DNA of 24,224 nucleotides, taken from positions 496,001 to 520,224 of the forward strand of contig JBEWZL010000244.1 of assembly GCA_045837725.1 (NCBI GenBank), read 5' to 3'. This stretch comes from Vermamoeba vermiformis. Lineage: Eukaryota. Positions 8,974-22,240 of this stretch are shown here, in pieces. Numbering within the stretch: the stretch's first letter is position 1; each line of letters starts with the position of its first letter. The position numbers and the translations under genes are program-made. The notes under the pieces are model-generated. The model was given only the letters and a program-made list of their open reading frames with translations. It was not told the origin of the DNA and ran no database searches.

Positions 8974-9170
8974 TTATATTGCTCTTCGTGTAATCAACAA
9001 TAAAAAATGAATGATCCGCGCCATTATAATTTTTATCTCCTTGTGGAAAAACACACAAACACCGGTGACTTATTCTATAATTAGTGACAAGGCTTTTTGA
9101 GGCTCTATGCGGAAATTGGCTATAACTTTTCGTCTCCCGATCGCAGTCAGCAATTTCACTCGCAACAATC
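8974..9170. promoter_or_regulatory. Short bidirectional promoter region between prpC-like and folate fusion genes
   Basis: Only ~197 bp separate the two divergent ATGs (8973 minus, 9171 plus). Positional inference only. Confidence 0.5.
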
Positions 9171-12100
9171 ATGGCGACTAACAACAGAACTATTAAAACC
9201 TTGCTTATCGATAATTATGATTCGTACACCTTTAACTTATTTCAATATTTGGCCGAAGTGAACGGAGAAGAGCCAGATGTAATCTACAATAATCAGTGTG
9301 ATGCGAATAGAATTTTGCAAGACATCAATGGTGGCAAATATGATAATATTGTCATATCACCTGGACCAGGTTTACCCTCCAACGAGCAAGGTACGTTACG
9401 CGCGGATTTGAATCTCTCTTCTGCTTCTTCTGCGTTGTTGTTTATTGCCGTAAACATTGGAACTGAATACACTTAACATTTATATTAATTTGATAGTATT
9501 AATCCAGATTTTGGTATTTGCGCAGCCTTAATCCGTGAAGCCTCCATCCCGATCCTCGGTGTGTGCTTAGGCTACCAAGGTATTGCAGTGCGGTGTCTAT
9601 ACGAGAAGGTCTGTTAATATATTTGATTAGGCATTGCTCTCGCTTACGGAGCGCAGTTAGCTCCTTCTTCACGAATTGTGCACGGGGAAGTTGGAAGAAT
9701 GCGGCACAATGAGGATCCTTTGTTCAAGGACATTCCCAGGCACTTCGATGCTGTGAGGTACCACTCGTGGATAGTGCAAGACCCATTGCCTACTGAGCTC
9801 GAGCCTATCGCGTGGTGTGAGGAAACGGATCGCGTGAGTGTCTCGCGTACCGATATGTAAGTGCATCGATACTCATCGAGGAAGATGGTAGCTAACTTTT
9901 GCTCACAATAGTGTTATGGCATTAAAGCACAAGTCGAAGCCCTTGTGGGGTGTGCTCTTTCATCCCGGTATGTTCGTCGAGATTTTGTTCGATCTAATCC
10001 GCATGGCTAACTTTCAGCTTTAGAATCGGTCTGCACGTTGCACGGAAAGCAAATATTAAAAAACTTTGCGTCTTTATCGACAAAAGTTGACGTGCACGCG
10101 ATACCTCTGTCAGTAACGCCGTTAGAGCACAAGACGAATACCACACAAGTCAAGTACCTTAAGCACTCAGCAAAATACTTGGCACAACAAACTTCAGCAC
10201 TTTTTGAGTGTCTCTTTAGCGGAGCTATTGATACAGAAAGATTTTGGTTGGATTCGTCACGAGCCGAGCCTGGTCTCAGTCGGTTTTCATTCATGGGCAC
10301 GATGAACGGACCGCACTCGGAAACGATGAGGTATCACGTGAACACTAAGAAGCTTATATTATCAACTGCAGGCAACGAGCGGGAGCAGCTGTTGGCCGAT
10401 GATCAAGATTTCTTTGCGTTCATTCGGTCCTACCTACGCGAAAAAGGGTACTATCACGATGGTAAGTAACATAGTATTTCGGCTTCATTTCGCTAATTTA
10501 CGACTAGAATCATTGCCCTTTGACCTACAGTGTGGTCTTGTAGGCTATTTTGGATACGAGATGAAGTATGAGTCTTTAGCAACTTCAAACCTTCAGCAAA
10601 CCTCGACTCTTCCCGATGCTTACTTGCTGTTTGCTGATCGCATAGTCGTCATTGATCACCAGCTAAACGACATCTATGTTGTTGCACTCTCGTTCTCAGC
10701 TGAGAATGAGGCTTGGTTGCATAGCACACTGGCTCAAATCCAGCAACTCGATGACTCCGCTACTTCAGCTTCAGTCAGCGGAGCTTCCAAGAGTTCCCTT
10801 ACTGTGAGCCTGCGTGCTGATTACAGCACCTATACATGTAAGTCTACAACGTGAGCGAATGTTTAAAGCTAATATGAAACGCGCAGCACAAATCAAGCAA
10901 TGCCTCAAGGAGATCGAGTTGGGTGAGAGCTATGAGCTGTGTTTAACCAATCAGCTCGTAGTTGATGGTTGCACTGTGCCGCCTCTCGAATTTTACAAAG
11001 CACTCCGCGATGCAAATCCAGCGCCTTACGCGTCATTCTTCGACTTCAAGACTTTTTCAGTTGTCAGCTCATCGCCCGAAAAATTCATCTCGCTTGACCG
11101 TCAAGGATTAGTTGAGTCTAAGCCAATCAAAGTAAGTCCTATACCTGCCTTTTCAAGCGTGCACTTAACAGGACTCCAGGGAACAATAAAGCGAGGTGCT
11201 ACGAGTGTCGAGGACGCCGAGTTAAAGCAGAAATTGCAGACGAGCAAAAAAGACTTTGCGGAGAATTTGATGATCACAGATCTCATTCGCAACGACTTGG
11301 GCCGAGTTTGCCAAATTGGGTCTGTTCGTGTTCCCAAGCTCATGGATGTTGAGAGCTACGCAACAGTTCATCAACTCGTCACCACTGTGCAAGGTCAGAT
11401 CAGTCCTCACAAGGACGCAATTGACTGCTTCAAAGCTGCATTCCCACCAGGGTCAATGACTGGCGCTCCTAAGCTGCGCTCAACGCAAATACTAGAAAGG
11501 TAAGTTCTCATGTGGCATATTGAATGAAGCTGACTTGAGTGCCAGGTTGGAGGGTAGACCGAGAGGAATCTATTCTGGAGCTATTGGCTACTTCTCGCTC
11601 AACCAAACGTGTCACTTTAATGTTGTTATACGCACAGCTGTCATGCATAACAACTCGATTTCTATTGGCTGCGGAGGTGCTCTTGTTATGGAGTCCAACG
11701 CCGATGAAGAATTCGAAGAGATGTTATTGAAGGGTCGCGCATTGATTAGAACTTTGGCACGATTATCCGGTCAAGATGACGATGTCAGAATAGTTGGCGC
11801 AACAAAGAAGGCGGAGTTCAATGGCGTCAAATACTTGGAGGATCTTTCAACGAAGAGTGGCGCGTTGGATTTATCATTAGACAGAATCAAGCGCGTGCTC
11901 TCGCTACTAAATCAGCCGCAAGAACAAGTGCCTATGATCCACGTGACTGGCACGAATGGCAAGGGCTCCGTGTGCGCGTACATCTCATCGGTACTCATAG
12001 AGAAAGGACTTAAAGTCGGCCGATTCACTTCGCCGCATTTGATTCGCTGGCACGAGAGCATTCAAATCAACAACATGGACATCGGCGACGACGAATTTAA

Positions 12101-13830
12101 CGAGCTCTTTTATGAGGTCTATCGAGTGACTCAACAGAACAATGCACCGCTGTCACAGTTCGAAGCGCTGACAGTGGCTGCGTACTTACATTTTGCCAAG
12201 TCCAAATGTGATGTCAATGTTATCGAAGTTGGCATGGGAGGCAGAGACGATGCAACAAACGTCTGCAGCTCACCCTTGATGTGCGTCATCACGTCGATTG
12301 GCTTGGATCACATGGCATTCTTGGGCAACACGCACGTGAAGATTGCCGAGAACAAGGCAGGAATCATTAAAACCGGTCGTCCTTGTGTCATATCAGGCAC
12401 TATTATCACCGAGGCTCGTGAAGCGATTGCCAAGTACGCTCACAATTTGAATGCGCCGTTGCACATCGTCAACTCTCCAGCCACGTTAATTGACGAGACA
12501 AGTCAGCTCGCAGAGTTCGAAGGCCTGAAATATCGGTTGCCGTTGCTTGGCGAGCATCAATTGATGAACTCAGCATTAGCCATTACCGCACTGCGCTTGT
12601 TGAAAGACCACTCTTCGAGCATGTTGTTCAACCTGACTGATGACGATATCGCCAATGGCATGTACCGAGTGCGATGGCCTGCAAGGTTGCAATTCATCGC
12701 GTGGAACAACAAACGAGTGCTAATTGACGGTGCTCACAATGAAGAAGGAGGCAGAGCGTTGCGTCGCTTTATCAACAAATTGAAAGCTCCTGATGGCACT
12801 GCCATGAAGATCAATTGGATAATGGGAATGCTATCTTCCAAGGATCACAGCCAATTTTTCAAAGAGACATTAGCACCTGGAGACTCATTGACTATAGTCC
12901 CTGTTGCTCCGAACGTTGACTGGTTATTTACGGCAGATACAAATGTCCTTGTTCAAAAGGCACGAGACATCTGCCCGCAACTGCACGACGTTCACGAGCA
13001 CGCTAGTGTTTACGAGGCTTTGGACTATTTAACTGCAAGACAGGATAGCGATGACTTCAGTCACGCTGCTAATCGTCTAATCGTTGTTTCGGGCTCATTG
13101 CATCTGTGTGGCAATGTGCTGGCTAAGGCGCTTGGTTTCTCATTGCTGGAAACAATGCTGTACGATCCAAAGCTTCAAAACGGCTCGATATTCCTTCTAC
13201 CTGAACATCTTGCTCGACTGACTTCCTCAGCTCAGTACTTCAATATTCCCGTCAACGCAGCAAAGATTCAACAGCAGCTGGCTGCTATTGCTTGCACTTG
13301 GCATACACCAAAGAGAGTCCGCCTGTTAGTGCACCCACAGCGCAACAACGAAGTCGAAATTCAAGCGCACGATGTTATCTACGACTTCGATCAGTTTCCT
13401 CCATCAAGACTAAAGCTAGCGACAAGGGCTATCTCCAAACGCAACGTGTTCCTCTACCACAAAACAACACAGAGAGACGTGTATGAAAACGCCAAGCTTG
13501 ACACCCACAATTGTGGTATGTGACTACAGTATAGTTTAACTCGAGTCGAGTTATTCTTATTCTTCGACGACAGATGACGTTATCTTATACAACGAAGAAG
13601 GACTAGTTACCGAAACAACAATAGGCAATATAGCTGTCCGATTCAAGAATGACGCGGTGTGGTACACGCCACCCATCAGCTGTGGAGTGTTGCCGGGTTG
13701 CATGAGACAACGCATGCTCGACACCGCAGCTCTGACCGAACGCGTCATCACTGTGGACGAGTTGAAGACAGCCGAAGAAATTAAGCTGTTGAACTCTGTG
13801 CGTGGTACATGGGGTGGGGTCTTAAATTAA
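9171..13830 (+). CDS. Multifunctional folate enzyme: glutamine amidotransferase (PabA) + ADC synthase (PabB) + dihydrofolate/folylpolyglutamate synthase (FolC) + ADC lyase (PabC); ~1377 aa, 10 exons
   Basis: Exons 9171-9390, 9508-9579, 9631-9856, 9912-9967, 10024-10461, 10508-10837, 10887-11131, 11180-11499, 11546-13515, 13574-13830 total 4134 nt in frame. PabA: LLIDNYDSYTFNL, ISPGPG, GVCLGYQG, RYHS, FHPES. PabB: SSSPEKF, KPIKGT, ENLMITDLIRNDLG, FPPGSMTGAPK, RGIYSGAIG. FolC: IHVTGTNGKGS, FTSPHL, EVGMGGRDDATN, IDGAHN. PabC: HLARLTSSA, FLYHKTT, VTETTIGN, GVLPGCMR, NSVRG. The last few codons are uncertain (a further small intron is possible). Confidence 0.93.
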
Positions 13831-13939
13831 TGTGCTCAACGTGCTAGGTAATAACGTATATTTTATTTGATCTGTCGTACTAAATGCTGACCTTACAATC
13901 ATTAGTTATATTTGGCTCTTTCATTGGCTCCGCGTTGTC

Positions 13940-14979: not shown

Positions 14980-15459
14980 AGCATCCGAACTTCGGATGGT
15001 CAAAAACCAGCTTTGAATAACTGATAGCTAGATAGTTAGAGGCATCCGATGTTCGGACGGTTATAACCAGCTATGTACTTCTAATAGCCCATATTCTCCA
15101 ACAAGGGCATCCGATGTTCGGATGGTCTAACAAGTAGCTACAAAAACCTAATAGCTCATTTTTGAATGCATAGGCATCCGATGTTCGGATGGTCTAACAA
15201 GTAGCTACAAAAACCTAATAGCTCACTTTTGATTACATAGGCATCCGAAATTCGGATGGTCTAAAAGTAGCTACAAAAACCTAATAGCTCACTTTTGAAT
15301 GCATAGGCATCCGAAGTTCGGATGGTCTAAAAGTAGCTACGAAAACCTGATATCTCATTTTTGAACGTATAGGCATCCGAACTTCGGATGGTCTATAAAG
15401 TTGCCTGAAAAAGTTAAAGTCTCATTAGAAGGCACAGGCATCCGAAATTCGGATGGTCC
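14980..15459. repeat. Tandem array of 8 palindromic units, period 61-67 bp
   Basis: Core GGCATCCGA-NN-TTCGGATGGTC at ~14980, 15041, 15106, 15173, 15240, 15306, 15372, 15437. Inner linkers are near-identical (AAGTAGCTACAAAAACCTAATAGCTCA); outer linkers are diverged. Confidence 0.95.
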
Positions 15460-15527: not shown

Positions 15528-18029
15528 TTACTTTTTACCTGCTGCTGCTTTAAGGTAATTTAAGGAGTCTTCTCTCTCCTTCTTCGCTTTGCGGCGCTTG
15601 TAATTTGCCAGATCCAGCTTTAAGTGCTGCATCACTTGGCCAGACCCATTGTGATGCATCTCATATACCAAGAACATGTCTCGGGGCATGACTGTCTCAC
15701 GTCTGGCATGGATGGCAGCAAGCTGGGCCATTGCAAAAACATCGCTGATGAAGTACTCAGCACCAAATTGAATAGCCTCCATGGCCGATTTCTGCCAGCG
15801 GATTTCTTCGCGTAGCTCAGGAGGTACGAGGTCCAAAGTGACCTCACGGACGAGTAGCTGAAAGGCTCGTCGACTGATCATGAGCCCTTCTTCGTTTTTG
15901 TAATGTTTCATTTCTTTCATAACTAAAAACATTAAAATTAGCCAAAAAGAATATAGCCGTAAATGTGCAACTTACACTGAGCCCGTTGATGATCTTTCAA
16001 CTCTTTTTTTTGGCTCGGCGACAGGGGCCTGTTTCGCTTCTTCGTTTTCAACAAGTCGTGTTTTTGTCGCTGGAAAACCCTGGCCTTAACAGCTTTTGGC
16101 AACGCCACCACCGGCTCGGATTCGAGGGTAAAATTGTCCTCGGGCTCGTCCTCTTGAATATCATCCTTGTCAATGCTCAGCTGCAACTTTGGCTTTGGAT
16201 AAACCGGATTATCCACTGCTTCGTGGAAAGGAAGCACCCTCTGTCCAAATTCCTGCGTGCTGAACAGATCGAAACTGCGGCGACTTTCCTCACTGGACTC
16301 GCTGGCCTCTTCGTCGGAAACGATGACTCTTGTTTTCTAACAATTTGTTAGTTTCGGTATATACTTTACATTACGGCAAACTTACCTTCTTGGGCCTTGG
16401 GTTGGCATCTTCATCGTCCGAGTGCTTGCGTTTACCAAGTGATTGATCTTCGTACTCGGAGACCTGCTCTTTTTTGTTAGCAACGCGTGTTTACGAATTA
16501 ATTGTCTTACCTCATCACTTGGAACTGGGGTGTTATTGTTCTTCCCCTTGCCCTTCTTTTTCTTCTTCGGGCTTGGCGCCGCACCCTCTGTACCATCACC
16601 AGCACCATCCTCCGTGGTCTTTGAGCTCTTTGATTTTTTGGTGGTAGCACTACCCGCCTTTGATTTTTTAGGAGTTGACGTGGCACTATTTGTCTACGAT
16701 TTAAAAATCAGCTATCTCCGCCCAATAGCCATTATTTAAACATACCTTTTGCGCCTTCGATTTTTTGGGAGTTGACGTAGCACTATTTGCCTTCAATTTT
16801 AAAAATCAGCTATAGTCGCCCAATAGCCATTATTTAACCATACCGTTTGTGCCGTATTCTCAACCTCGGGCTCTCGGTCACTGGGTTCGACTGGGACCTC
16901 CTAAAGTAAAAGGTTATATAAAAACTATGCCAAATAAATACGCACCACCTGTTCTTCAACCTCATCCATGTTTTCGTCGGTGATGGGAGGTGTTGGTGCT
17001 CGGGCAAGCACCTGTGTCGCGTCAGGGTCCGCACTTCCCAGCTCCACCTCAGGGTCCGCACTTTCACGCTCCGATGCCCCGCGAATGATTTGCGTAGCAT
17101 CAGGGTCCTCTGAATTGCCTTCTTCTTCTTGCTGGCCCCTCTCCAAACTCTGGCGATCAGAAGCCTCTTCCCCCGATTGGTGGCTCTGTTCACCATTGGC
17201 AGTGCCACCCGTTGTAGCCTGACGAGCATTACGTGATGGTCGTCTACGGTTAGATCTGCGCTTTGCTGGCGACAGTGACGGCTGTGGATTGGCACCGGCT
17301 TTGCCTTTTACTGGCGTCGGAGGCGGAGCCTTGCCTTTCGCTGACGATGGTGGCGGCGGCGATTTGGCACCAGTCTTGCCCTTTGCCGACGATGGTGACG
17401 GCGACGGCGACGGTGGTGGATTGGCACCGGTCTTGCCCTTTGCTGGCGGTGCTTTGGCGCTAGCCTTTCCCTTTGCCGGCGATGGTGGATTGGCACCGGT
17501 TTTGCCTTTTACTGGCGTCGGAGGCGGAGCCTTGCCTTTTGCTGACGATGGTGGCGGCGGCGATTTGGCACCAGTCTTGCCCTTTGGCGATGCTTTGGCC
17601 GGTGCTTGGCGAATTAAGACGCTAACCGGATCAGTTAGCCGTTAAAATTAATTACAATTTATTAAAAAATAATTACCTGGTAGTTCCTGCTTGCAATACA
17701 CCCGGGGCCCTAATATAAGCGTCAGCGTCGTGCTTTTTATGTAAATAAAATTGTACTTACCTTCTTTGTCGTGGAGAACTACGAGTATTGCCAGATCTAC
17801 GAAATTAAAAATTAAGTAAGCAATTAGAATAAATGATTTCGTTGTAAATATTCTTTCTCATATTTAAAATAAAAATATAATTTAATTTACTTACGTTTCT
17901 GGCTGTTGATCTGCGTCGTTTTTGGATGCGTTCTTATCTCCGGACCTACTCAAATAATTAGTCCCGTATTATATATGTATAACGTCCTGTTTAAACTTAC
18001 TTTGATTTGCTACCCTTAGATTTGGGCAT
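15528..18029 (-). CDS. Giant histone H3 variant (CenH3/CENP-A-like), ~647 aa, 11 exons
   Basis: Exons 18029-18001, 17945-17895, 17796-17761, 17709-17677, 17621-16946, 16900-16844, 16790-16746, 16693-16511, 16463-16386, 16336-15976, 15922-15528 join with consistent phases (1944 nt). The last exon is an H3 fold: KEMKHYKNEEGLMISRRAFQLLVREVT...RWQKSAMEAIQFGAEYFISDVFAMAQLAAIHARRETVMPRDM. Confidence 0.85.
17260..17600 (-). repeat. Coding repeat in H3-variant tail (AKGKTGA-K/N-Pro/Ser-rich units)
   Basis: A ~100-bp block at ~17285-17385 recurs at ~17486-17586; about eight KGK units are embedded in Pro/Ser runs. Confidence 0.85.
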
Positions 18030-21344: not shown

Positions 21345-22240
21345 GTAAGTTTGCAATAATAATATTAATTACAATAATAATATTAACTCGTTTTAAACAG
21401 CTAGGATAATCTTTCGAGAATCTTGCGTTCTCGTTCTCGATCCTGCAGTCTCCCAGCTTCCAAACTCGGTACGTATATTAATATTTATTTACTTACATAC
21501 TAACTGTTTATATTAAGAGCTTACCAGTCTCAATTTTGCGTGGCTCGCAACATCGCCGATACGAATCACGTCTCGTCTTTGCGCAGCGAGTTCCAGCTTG
21601 CAGACTTCACGGTACGTATATTTACGTTGATTTAACTATATTACTAACTTTTTTTAATAATTCAGAACTCATCGAGCCTCAATTCAGCGAGCTCGCAACA
21701 TCGCGCATGCGAATCACGTTCTCGTTCTCGATTCAGTACGATCCCCCAGCTGCCTAACTCAAGGTACGAATATTAAGCTTTATTATAATAACATTACTAA
21801 CTCTTATTTACAGTTCAGAGCTCACCAGGTCTCAAATTTACCGACTCTCAACATCGATGATTCGAATCACGCTTCTCGTGCTTGATTCAGCACGGTCTCC
21901 CAGCCTGCAGACTTCACGGTACGTATATCCACATTGATGTAATTGCATTACTAACTTTTATTTATAATTCAGAGCTCACCAAGTCTCAATTCAGCGAGCT
22001 CGCAACATCGCGCATGCGAATCACGTTCTCGTTCTCGATTCAGTACAATCCCCCAGCTGCCTAACTCAAGGTACGTATATTAAGCTTTACTACAATTACA
22101 TTAGTAACTCTTATTTACAGTTAAGAGCTAGCCGAGTCTCAATTTTAGACACTCGCAACATCGAATCACGTTCTCGTTCTCGATCCAGCACAGTCTCCCA
22201 GCTTACAGACTTCACGGTACGTGTATCTATATTTAATATG
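21345..22240 (+). repeat. Tandem array of ~6 intron+exon-like units (143-155 bp period; 307-bp dimeric higher-order repeat)
   Basis: GTACG donors at 21469, 21612, 21764, 21919, 22071, 22217; TACTAAC-like branch points and YAG/AAG acceptors; shared core CTCGCAACATCG...CGAATCACGTTCTCGTTCTCGAT...CCCAGC. Confidence 0.9.

Follow-up and report, generated by a model that had tools for sequence, protein, structure and literature searches.

A four-module folate gene in ten exons

The stretch of DNA shown above, 24,224 nucleotides (nt) long and referred to here as the window, carries a gene at 9171..13830 whose translation joins four modules of folate metabolism on one chain, in the order PabA (a glutamine amidotransferase, GATase), PabB, FolC and a PabC-like domain. 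All coordinates are positions in the window and refer to the plus strand unless stated otherwise. We consider it likely that the locus is a real, expressed eukaryotic gene for a single 1377-residue protein that serves both the synthesis of p-aminobenzoate (pABA) and glutamylation, and in which FolC was inserted into the linker of a PabB-PabC fusion.

The coding region starts with the ATG at 9171 and ends with the TAA at 13828-13830. Its ten exons (9171-9390, 9508-9579, 9631-9856, 9912-9967, 10024-10461, 10508-10837, 10887-11131, 11180-11499, 11546-13515 and 13574-13830) add up to 4134 nt, corresponding to 1377 codons and the stop, with no internal stop codon. They are separated by nine introns of 46-117 nt, each with GT..AG borders. 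The splice model is collinear with the related proteins P0002, P0003 and P0006, described below. An in-frame stop (9123-9125) lies upstream of the ATG, and the protein opens directly at the first strand of the amidotransferase, which leaves no presequence. Because a presequence is lacking, the protein is probably cytosolic.

Exon 9 (11546-13515, 1970 nt) lies inside a stop-to-stop frame of 675 codons (11496-13523), and positions 11547-13514 translate to 656 residues without a stop. This exon alone matches three families: Chorismate_bind at its end, FolC over its full length and Aminotran_4 over its first half. So long an open frame, with four families in collinear order, is far more than chance would produce. 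A sequence-only reading of the same DNA had placed PabA, PabB, FolC and PabC on one polypeptide, with the PabB-FolC and FolC-PabC junctions both inside the 1970-nt exon. The Pfam and NCBIfam matches and the ten-exon model bear this out. The exon borders are the same and the exon is open across both junctions, which upholds the accompanying claim that the fusion is not a splicing artefact. The catalytic motifs, which that reading regarded as intact, were all located (GVCLGYQG, FHPES, GTNGKGS and YHKTTQR; positions below).

Domain composition of the protein

The PabA-type class-I glutamine amidotransferase domain (9171..10049, residues 1-200) is split by introns 1-4 and matches Pfam GATase with 36.5 and 32.4 bits on exons 1 and 3 (cut-off 22.8). 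It contains the motifs GVCLGYQG (9558-9632) and FHPES (9958-10028), whose Cys and His-Glu, respectively, we take to be the catalytic triad of class-I amidotransferases. Among the relatives that cover these positions, the Cys is conserved in P0003, P0004, P0005 and P0006, and FHPES in the same four and in P0002. The connector between PabA and PabB (10011-10466), one of the eight pieces in the Pfam scan, matched no family.

PabB, component I of 4-amino-4-deoxychorismate (ADC) synthase, occupies 10050..11738 (residues 201-700) and contains introns 5-8. It consists of Anth_synt_I_N (43.5 bits) and Chorismate_bind (56.2, 128.4 and 59.9 bits), with four exons jointly covering positions 7-257 of the 257 in the profile; the share of exon 9 is the last 62 profile positions (59.9 bits). 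The motif PIKGT (11123-11185) is kept in all five aligned relatives, and SMTGAPK lies at 11453-11473. The Lys in PIKGT presumably marks PabB, an Ala at this position being the mark of TrpE. The NCBIfam equivalog TIGR01823 (PabB-fungal; cut-off 442.55) is reached by the relative P0003 with 476.3 over residues 14-730, while P0002, which is N-terminally truncated, scores 373.9. By these matches the PabA-PabB part is predicted to be of the usual eukaryotic kind. The eukaryotic PabA-PabB ADC synthases (yeast ABZ1, Coprinopsis Pab1, plant ADCS; TIGR01823) have the same order of GATase and then PabB that is found, with no presequence, over the N-terminal 700 residues of the window protein. However, the known enzymes end after PabB, whereas the chain described here continues with FolC and the PabC-like domain. 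In Saccharomyces cerevisiae and Coprinopsis cinerea, Abz1/Pab1, Abz2, Fol3 and Met7 are separate proteins (PMC7552465, excerpts).

The linker between PabB and FolC (11739..11804, residues 701-722) lies inside exon 9 and is poorly conserved, with 13 of 22 residues identical to P0002, 7/22 to P0003 and 4/22 to P0006. It is followed by the FolC domain (11805..13124, residues 723-1162), which scores 325.1 bits against the NCBIfam subfamily model TIGR01499 (cut-off 162.65), with residues 111-525 of the exon 9 translation aligned to profile positions 1-397 of 400. The FolC motifs are the P-loop GTNGKGS (11949-11969), GMGGRDDATN (12231-12260), KAGIIK (12354-12371) and DGAHNEEG (12726-12749). The FolC-PabC junction (13125..13145, residues 1163-1169) reads AKALGFS, with the conserved LLET of the PabC-like domain directly after it, and is spanned by a contig of sequencing run X2 (record 14, 12933-13213).

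Twelve positions of Escherichia coli FolC were checked by alignment, and all are the same or similar in the window. Ten are identical, including L30, F124, E146, G151, D154, A155, H173, K188 and N306, and the conservative changes are I28 to L and T122 to S. At position 303, where E. coli has V, the window and all other aligned rows have G. In E. coli numbering, E146, H173 and K188, together with the P-loop and DGAHN, are all conserved; we take these to be the ATP/metal-site and ligase positions. L30, F124, D154 and A155 presumably line the dihydropteroate pocket of the E. coli enzyme, and F124, D154 and A155 are kept in the window as in every other FolC aligned. Bacterial bifunctional FolC (E. 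coli, PDB 1w78; cyanobacterial enzymes) thus resembles the window domain, with its full-length TIGR01499 match, P-loop and DGAHN. In contrast to the free-standing bacterial enzymes, the window FolC is fused, and it belongs to a clade of its own with its own motifs PNV-W and GSLHLCG.

Assignment of the FolC activity is less straightforward. Folylpolyglutamate synthase (FPGS) and FolC chains in the PDB match the window domain with E values from 1e-47 to 8e-36, and the best of them is the monofunctional FPGS 1fgs (E 1e-47), ahead of the bifunctional enzymes of E. coli and Yersinia. This match would fit a module that acts only as FPGS, lengthening the glutamate tails of reduced folates, with dihydrofolate synthase (DHFS) a separate protein; the fusion would then tie the supply of pABA to the retention of folates and not to their synthesis. 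Such a reading also agrees with the statement, in excerpts of PMC1971073, that the activities are indistinguishable by sequence, no motif distinguishing the use of dihydropteroate having been derivable. A second FolC may moreover be present elsewhere in the genome. We nevertheless regard an FPGS-only module as unlikely: among named stand-alone relatives, the closest (40-45% identity) are cyanobacterial enzymes with a bifunctional annotation, the residues that presumably form the dihydropteroate pocket (F124, D154, A155 and L30) are kept, and the modules fused to FolC serve de novo synthesis, for which DHFS is required.

The PabC-like domain (13146..13827, residues 1170-1377) is a class-IV domain of the pyridoxal phosphate (PLP) fold type IV, split by intron 9. 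Its two parts match Pfam Aminotran_4 with 38.6 and 78.4 bits (cut-off 28.5), covering profile positions 2-127 and 137-218 of 223. The motifs are YHKTTQR with the PLP lysine (13455-13475), VTETTIGN (13606-13629) and NSVRG (13792-13806); all four fused PabC domains compared share, without change, the lysine (HKTT) and the positions of ETT, N and SVRG. A profile search of the PDB found the Mlr3007 protein 3qqm (E 4.6e-39), followed by the ADC lyases 3lul (3.6e-16) and 4k6n (2.5e-13). The best NCBIfam matches are PRK07546 subfamilies and then pabC families, all under their own cut-offs; the whole domain of P0002 scores 100.3 against a cut-off of 222 (PRK07546.1-4) and 51.1 against 176.85 (TIGR03461, pabC_Proteo). 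Because the equivalog cut-offs are not reached, we class it as PabC-like, a class-IV domain of the short type represented by Mlr3007/PRK07546. By analogy with bacterial PabB fusions, the domain probably has ADC lyase activity. Each of the four modules thus appears to keep the residues expected of an active enzyme.

Splicing and sequence constraint

Contigs of the sequencing runs X1 and X2 are 95-99% alike to the window in 14 of 17 and 6 of 8 records, respectively, a degree of likeness that points to a close relative or to a different strain as their source. Seven introns (1, 2, 3, 5, 6, 7 and 9) are missing from them with borders precisely as predicted, and for intron 4 the gap is approximate, with 57 nt skipped and one letter added. 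Support for intron 8 comes from P0002, whose sequence ...ILERLEGRPRG... continues across it without a break, and P0002, P0003 and P0006 read through all intron positions. Raw RNA-seq reads of a more distant relative (22 in X9 and 29 in X10) also fall on the gene, in all four domain regions; they are mostly 90-95% alike and fit only partly. When translated and compared by eye, a loose end of these reads before 10889 runs from the last part of exon 6 into exon 7.

In the 3' untranslated region (13836-13903), an X1 contig replaces 66 nt with 9 other letters. The replaced segment has the ends CA..AT, and the difference looks like a strain indel and not like an intron.

The gene is under purifying selection, as the difference counts and the conservation of the protein show. 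Between the window and the matched sequences, 31 of the 40 differences listed are synonymous and 9 non-synonymous (13 against 3 within FolC), with 30 more differences beyond those listed. Compared with P0002, the identity amounts to 79% for GATase, 88% for Chorismate_bind, 82% for FolC and 66% for PabC, with 78% over exon 9 as a whole. FolC is therefore among the best-conserved parts of the chain.

Relatives with the same architecture

Matching proteins of 1149-3280 residues numbered 18, and five of them (P0002-P0006) combine PabA/PabB with FolC, three of the five having Aminotran_4 as well. The other 13 have FolC beside unrelated domains, or no Pfam domain. P0002 (1257 residues) and P0003 (1561 residues) come from contigs of 4165 and 4737 nt, and P0006 (1575 residues) is an MMETSP transcript labelled complete. 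P0004 and P0005 are models from Balamuthia mandrillaris, named aminodeoxychorismate synthase, variant 2. Like the fragment P0035, they diverge from the family alignment immediately behind the GSL that closes FolC, and then terminate. This shared departure looks like read-through into an intron, and the PabC exon may be missing from the Balamuthia models.

An exhaustive HMMER search gave 40,586 matches at E up to 0.001. Fusion-like proteins among the best 150 of these are P0020 (a piece from an open reading frame, ORF), P0021, P0005, P0025, P0038 and the fragment P0035; P0025 and P0038 are FolC-PabC pieces close to P0003 and P0006. P0021, a PabB-FolC-PabC protein of 1119 residues, is recorded as an uncharacterized protein of the desert locust Schistocerca gregaria, on a 376-kb contig of the assembly. 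Animals lack folate synthesis, and P0021 may for this reason come from the DNA of a microbial eukaryote associated with the locust, or be the product of gene transfer. The architecture thus occurs in about five divergent groups (at least four besides the window), but it is rare. A metagenome scan with P0002 gave 115 pattern matches, none of which was confirmed. In the ESM Atlas no large cluster of this architecture was found: P0001 led only to bacterial FolC clusters, at 0.82, and P0003 to no usable match.

Matches of 796-893 residues had been suspected to be PabB-FolC fusions. Pfam identifies them as FolC-FolC tandems (7 of the 17 scanned, and in addition P0083). The tandem proteins P0022, P0023, P0024, P0026, P0029, P0032, P0033 and P0083 each contain Mur_ligase_M and Mur_ligase_C twice.

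Fused gene models call for caution, as adjacent genes can be merged by misassembly or by a gene model, and one of the domains could be a decaying remnant. Many other long FolC matches are indeed merged models with unrelated domains, and ORF callers cut the same exon into the FolC-PabC pieces P0169 (611 residues), P0020 (607) and P0170 (624). For the window gene we find such an artefact hardly credible. Both junctions lie in one exon without a stop, the same order recurs in distant relatives including a transcript, and the intron-free contigs fit the predicted splice sites. Decay of a domain is contradicted by the excess of synonymous over non-synonymous differences (31:9) and by the 82% identity of FolC to P0002.

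The sequence-only reading knew of no fusion that embeds FolC. The occurrence in at least four other divergent groups shows that the architecture is not confined to the window, but the statement stands as far as the literature is concerned. Full-text searches, with subscription journals and supplements outside their scope, found no paper describing a PabA/PabB-FolC(-PabC) protein, nor is such a fusion mentioned in the examined passages of comparative work dealing with algae and plants and with an ochrophyte. Database entries call the relatives para-aminobenzoate synthetase, aminodeoxychorismate synthase or uncharacterized protein.

Origin of the fusion

In a phylogeny of 62 FolC domains, all eight fused domains group with the fragment P0035 in a single clade (bootstrap 96, approximate likelihood-ratio test SH-aLRT 91). 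Its sister is the stand-alone FolC P0030 (support 99/96), and branch lengths are normal. The tree leaves out P0029 (tandem FolC), P0170 (near-duplicate ORF piece) and P0018 (long branch). The fused clade stands separate both from the cyanobacterial one and from three Fol3-like models of fungi, and a quick tree of 63 rows agrees. The FolC domains of the fused proteins thus appear to have a single origin.

A cyanobacterial origin of the FolC part had been suggested by the named stand-alone matches, which are nearly all cyanobacterial and the best of which are annotated as bifunctional, but in neither tree does the fused clade fall within the cyanobacterial one.

Scanning prokaryotic genomes with a profile built from the four fused PabC domains yielded 548 confirmed relatives, and the best 80 loci, from many phyla, were examined. 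PabB is directly upstream of the PabC-like domain in 79 of these 80 loci, and in 78 the two parts are in one open frame, 10-17 codons apart. FolC was found in none of the 80 within the fetched flanks (up to 5 kb on each side). The C-terminal domains of the bacterial fusions are 36-48% identical to the PabC-like domain of the window. Two fusion ORFs (581 and 593 residues) pass the TIGR00553 pabB model (342.9 and 342.7 against 328.4), and their C-terminal domain is PRK07546-like. PabB-PabC fusion is common, and DIP1790 of Corynebacterium diphtheriae (PabA-PabB-PabC) has both ADC synthase and ADC lyase activity (PMC1971073, section 12). At locus L005 (3834-5612) of Arthrospira platensis PCC 7345, a PabB-PabC fusion ORF of 593 residues has a PabC part that is 44% identical to that of the window.

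The bacterial fusions and the eukaryotic chain have the junction ...FDLLET... in common, which is recognisable right after FolC as GFSLLET in the window and PPFDLLET in P0003. Residues 700 and 1170 of the window protein are equivalent to the ends of the bacterial linker; instead of 10-17 codons they are separated by 469 residues, comprising the whole FolC and two short linkers. Because the bacterial relatives are PabB-PabC proteins with a short linker and no FolC nearby, we read the chain as a PabB-PabC fusion with FolC in the linker. It looks as though a PabB-PabC fusion gained FolC in its 10-17-residue linker; N-terminally the chain has PabA, like other eukaryotic ADC synthases. The sequence-only reading had seen in the chain an assembly line from chorismate to pABA. 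The order of the modules is better explained by insertion of FolC into the PabB-PabC linker than by the order of the reactions.

Proposed function

We propose that the PabA module hydrolyses glutamine and supplies ammonia, with which the PabB module would convert chorismate to ADC. The C-terminal PabC-like PLP domain would then remove pyruvate to yield pABA. The FolC module belongs to the ATP-dependent glutamate ligases of bacterial DHFS/FPGS type. Its most likely role is to attach the first glutamate to dihydropteroate (DHFS activity), and it may attach further ones.

FolC acts after dihydropteroate synthase (DHPS), and the domain content supports the earlier remark that the chain lacks this step. 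Because DHPS is missing, the protein would not form a straight-line channel, and the fusion would couple the amount and the location of two non-adjacent steps. We infer that equal dosage and co-location are the economical explanation of the fusion. The absence of DHPS would be accounted for differently if the FolC-like module joined glutamate to pABA, giving p-aminobenzoyl-glutamate, which DHPS would then condense with the pterin to dihydrofolate; the chain would be a consecutive assembly line, and a glutamate ligase between the last two pABA enzymes would be expected. We hold this to be very improbable, since the positions that presumably hold the pterin ring in E. coli FolC are conserved in all eight fused domains, as in ordinary FolC, and the fused clade, with the stand-alone P0030 as its sister and normal branch lengths, gives no sign of a remodelled pocket.

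A complex (metabolon) of the chain with hydroxymethyldihydropterin pyrophosphokinase (HPPK)-DHPS, as proposed in the sequence-only reading, is possible. Going further, we speculate that two megasynthases run most of folate synthesis from GTP and chorismate in these eukaryotes. FolC, at the hinge, would let the chain clamp the protein carrying dihydroneopterin aldolase (DHNA), HPPK and DHPS; pABA would leave PabC, the docked DHPS would condense it, and dihydropteroate would return to FolC without passing through the bulk cytosol. The fusion would then be a Rosetta-stone record of a metabolon of DHPS, DHFS and pABA synthase, maybe a non-covalent one where the enzymes are separate. We give this extended scheme a rather low probability.

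Several observations weigh against a functional four-module gene that arose by insertion. Among the joints listed for the X1 and X2 contigs, the intron 8 junction is absent; these contigs are 161-531 nt long, no single RNA molecule of this organism was observed from start to stop, and the type of the libraries was guessed as RNA. The two Balamuthia models are without an Aminotran_4 domain, and the PabC-like domain misses every NCBIfam equivalog cut-off. By sequence DHFS cannot be separated from FPGS, so the module may be either enzyme or both, and the organism's genome may contain a second FolC/FPGS or a separate PabC. As to the insertion, the PabC tree (47 rows, comprising 7 eukaryotic domains and every second of the 80 bacterial ones, 40 in all) is not resolved and does not group the eukaryotic domains; four changes are needed, though no starred branch forces more than one. 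Stand-alone short PabC-like forms exist (3qqm, 221 residues), and the 80-locus sample is biased toward likeness to the query because it is the best part of the 548 relatives.

Comparison with known folate enzymes

Several folate activities on one chain are also found in fungal Fol1 (DHNA-HPPK-DHPS), in dihydrofolate reductase-thymidylate synthase (DHFR-TS) and in HPPK-DHPS (PMC7552465, PMC6451014, excerpts). However, these proteins join consecutive pterin or reduction steps, whereas the window protein joins the pABA branch to a step beyond the absent DHPS. Fusions of PabA-PabB, PabB-PabC and PabA-PabB-PabC are known; FolC inside a pABA synthase is apparently undescribed in the literature covered.

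The fusion is a natural and testable hint that DHFS is functionally coupled to the pABA branch, be it by co-expression, by co-location or by a complex with DHPS. It would also provide a clean example of a whole enzyme inserted into an existing interdomain linker. For annotation, the finding calls for a correction, as the names in database entries stop at para-aminobenzoate or aminodeoxychorismate synthase, and ORF callers split the proteins into FolC-PabC pieces. Balamuthia mandrillaris is among the carriers and animals are without folate synthesis, so the combined enzyme could be of interest for antifolate research.

Surroundings of the gene

The neighbours of the folate gene in the window are exons of an actin-family gene, a histone H3-like gene and a citrate synthase gene. 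These, together with the short GT..AG introns of the folate gene, indicate that the window is eukaryotic. For the Arp1-like exon, the best matches among named proteins come from chytrids, blastoclads and kickxellomycetes with 57-60% identity, and one Logan protein reaches 72%. A tandem array (15106-15458) with a 66-nt unit in 5.3 copies, 87% matching, separates the folate gene from the histone H3-like gene (15528-15971, minus strand). On the minus strand, a 238-codon open frame without a family match (16925-17641) is rich in AKGKTGA..PPP repeats, and a 33-nt tandem repeat lies at 17415-17517. A second tandem array (21426-22227) has a unit of 153/307 nt in 2.7-4.2 copies, 74-81% matching; within the unit are GTACGT...CTAAC-like strings reminiscent of intron signals.

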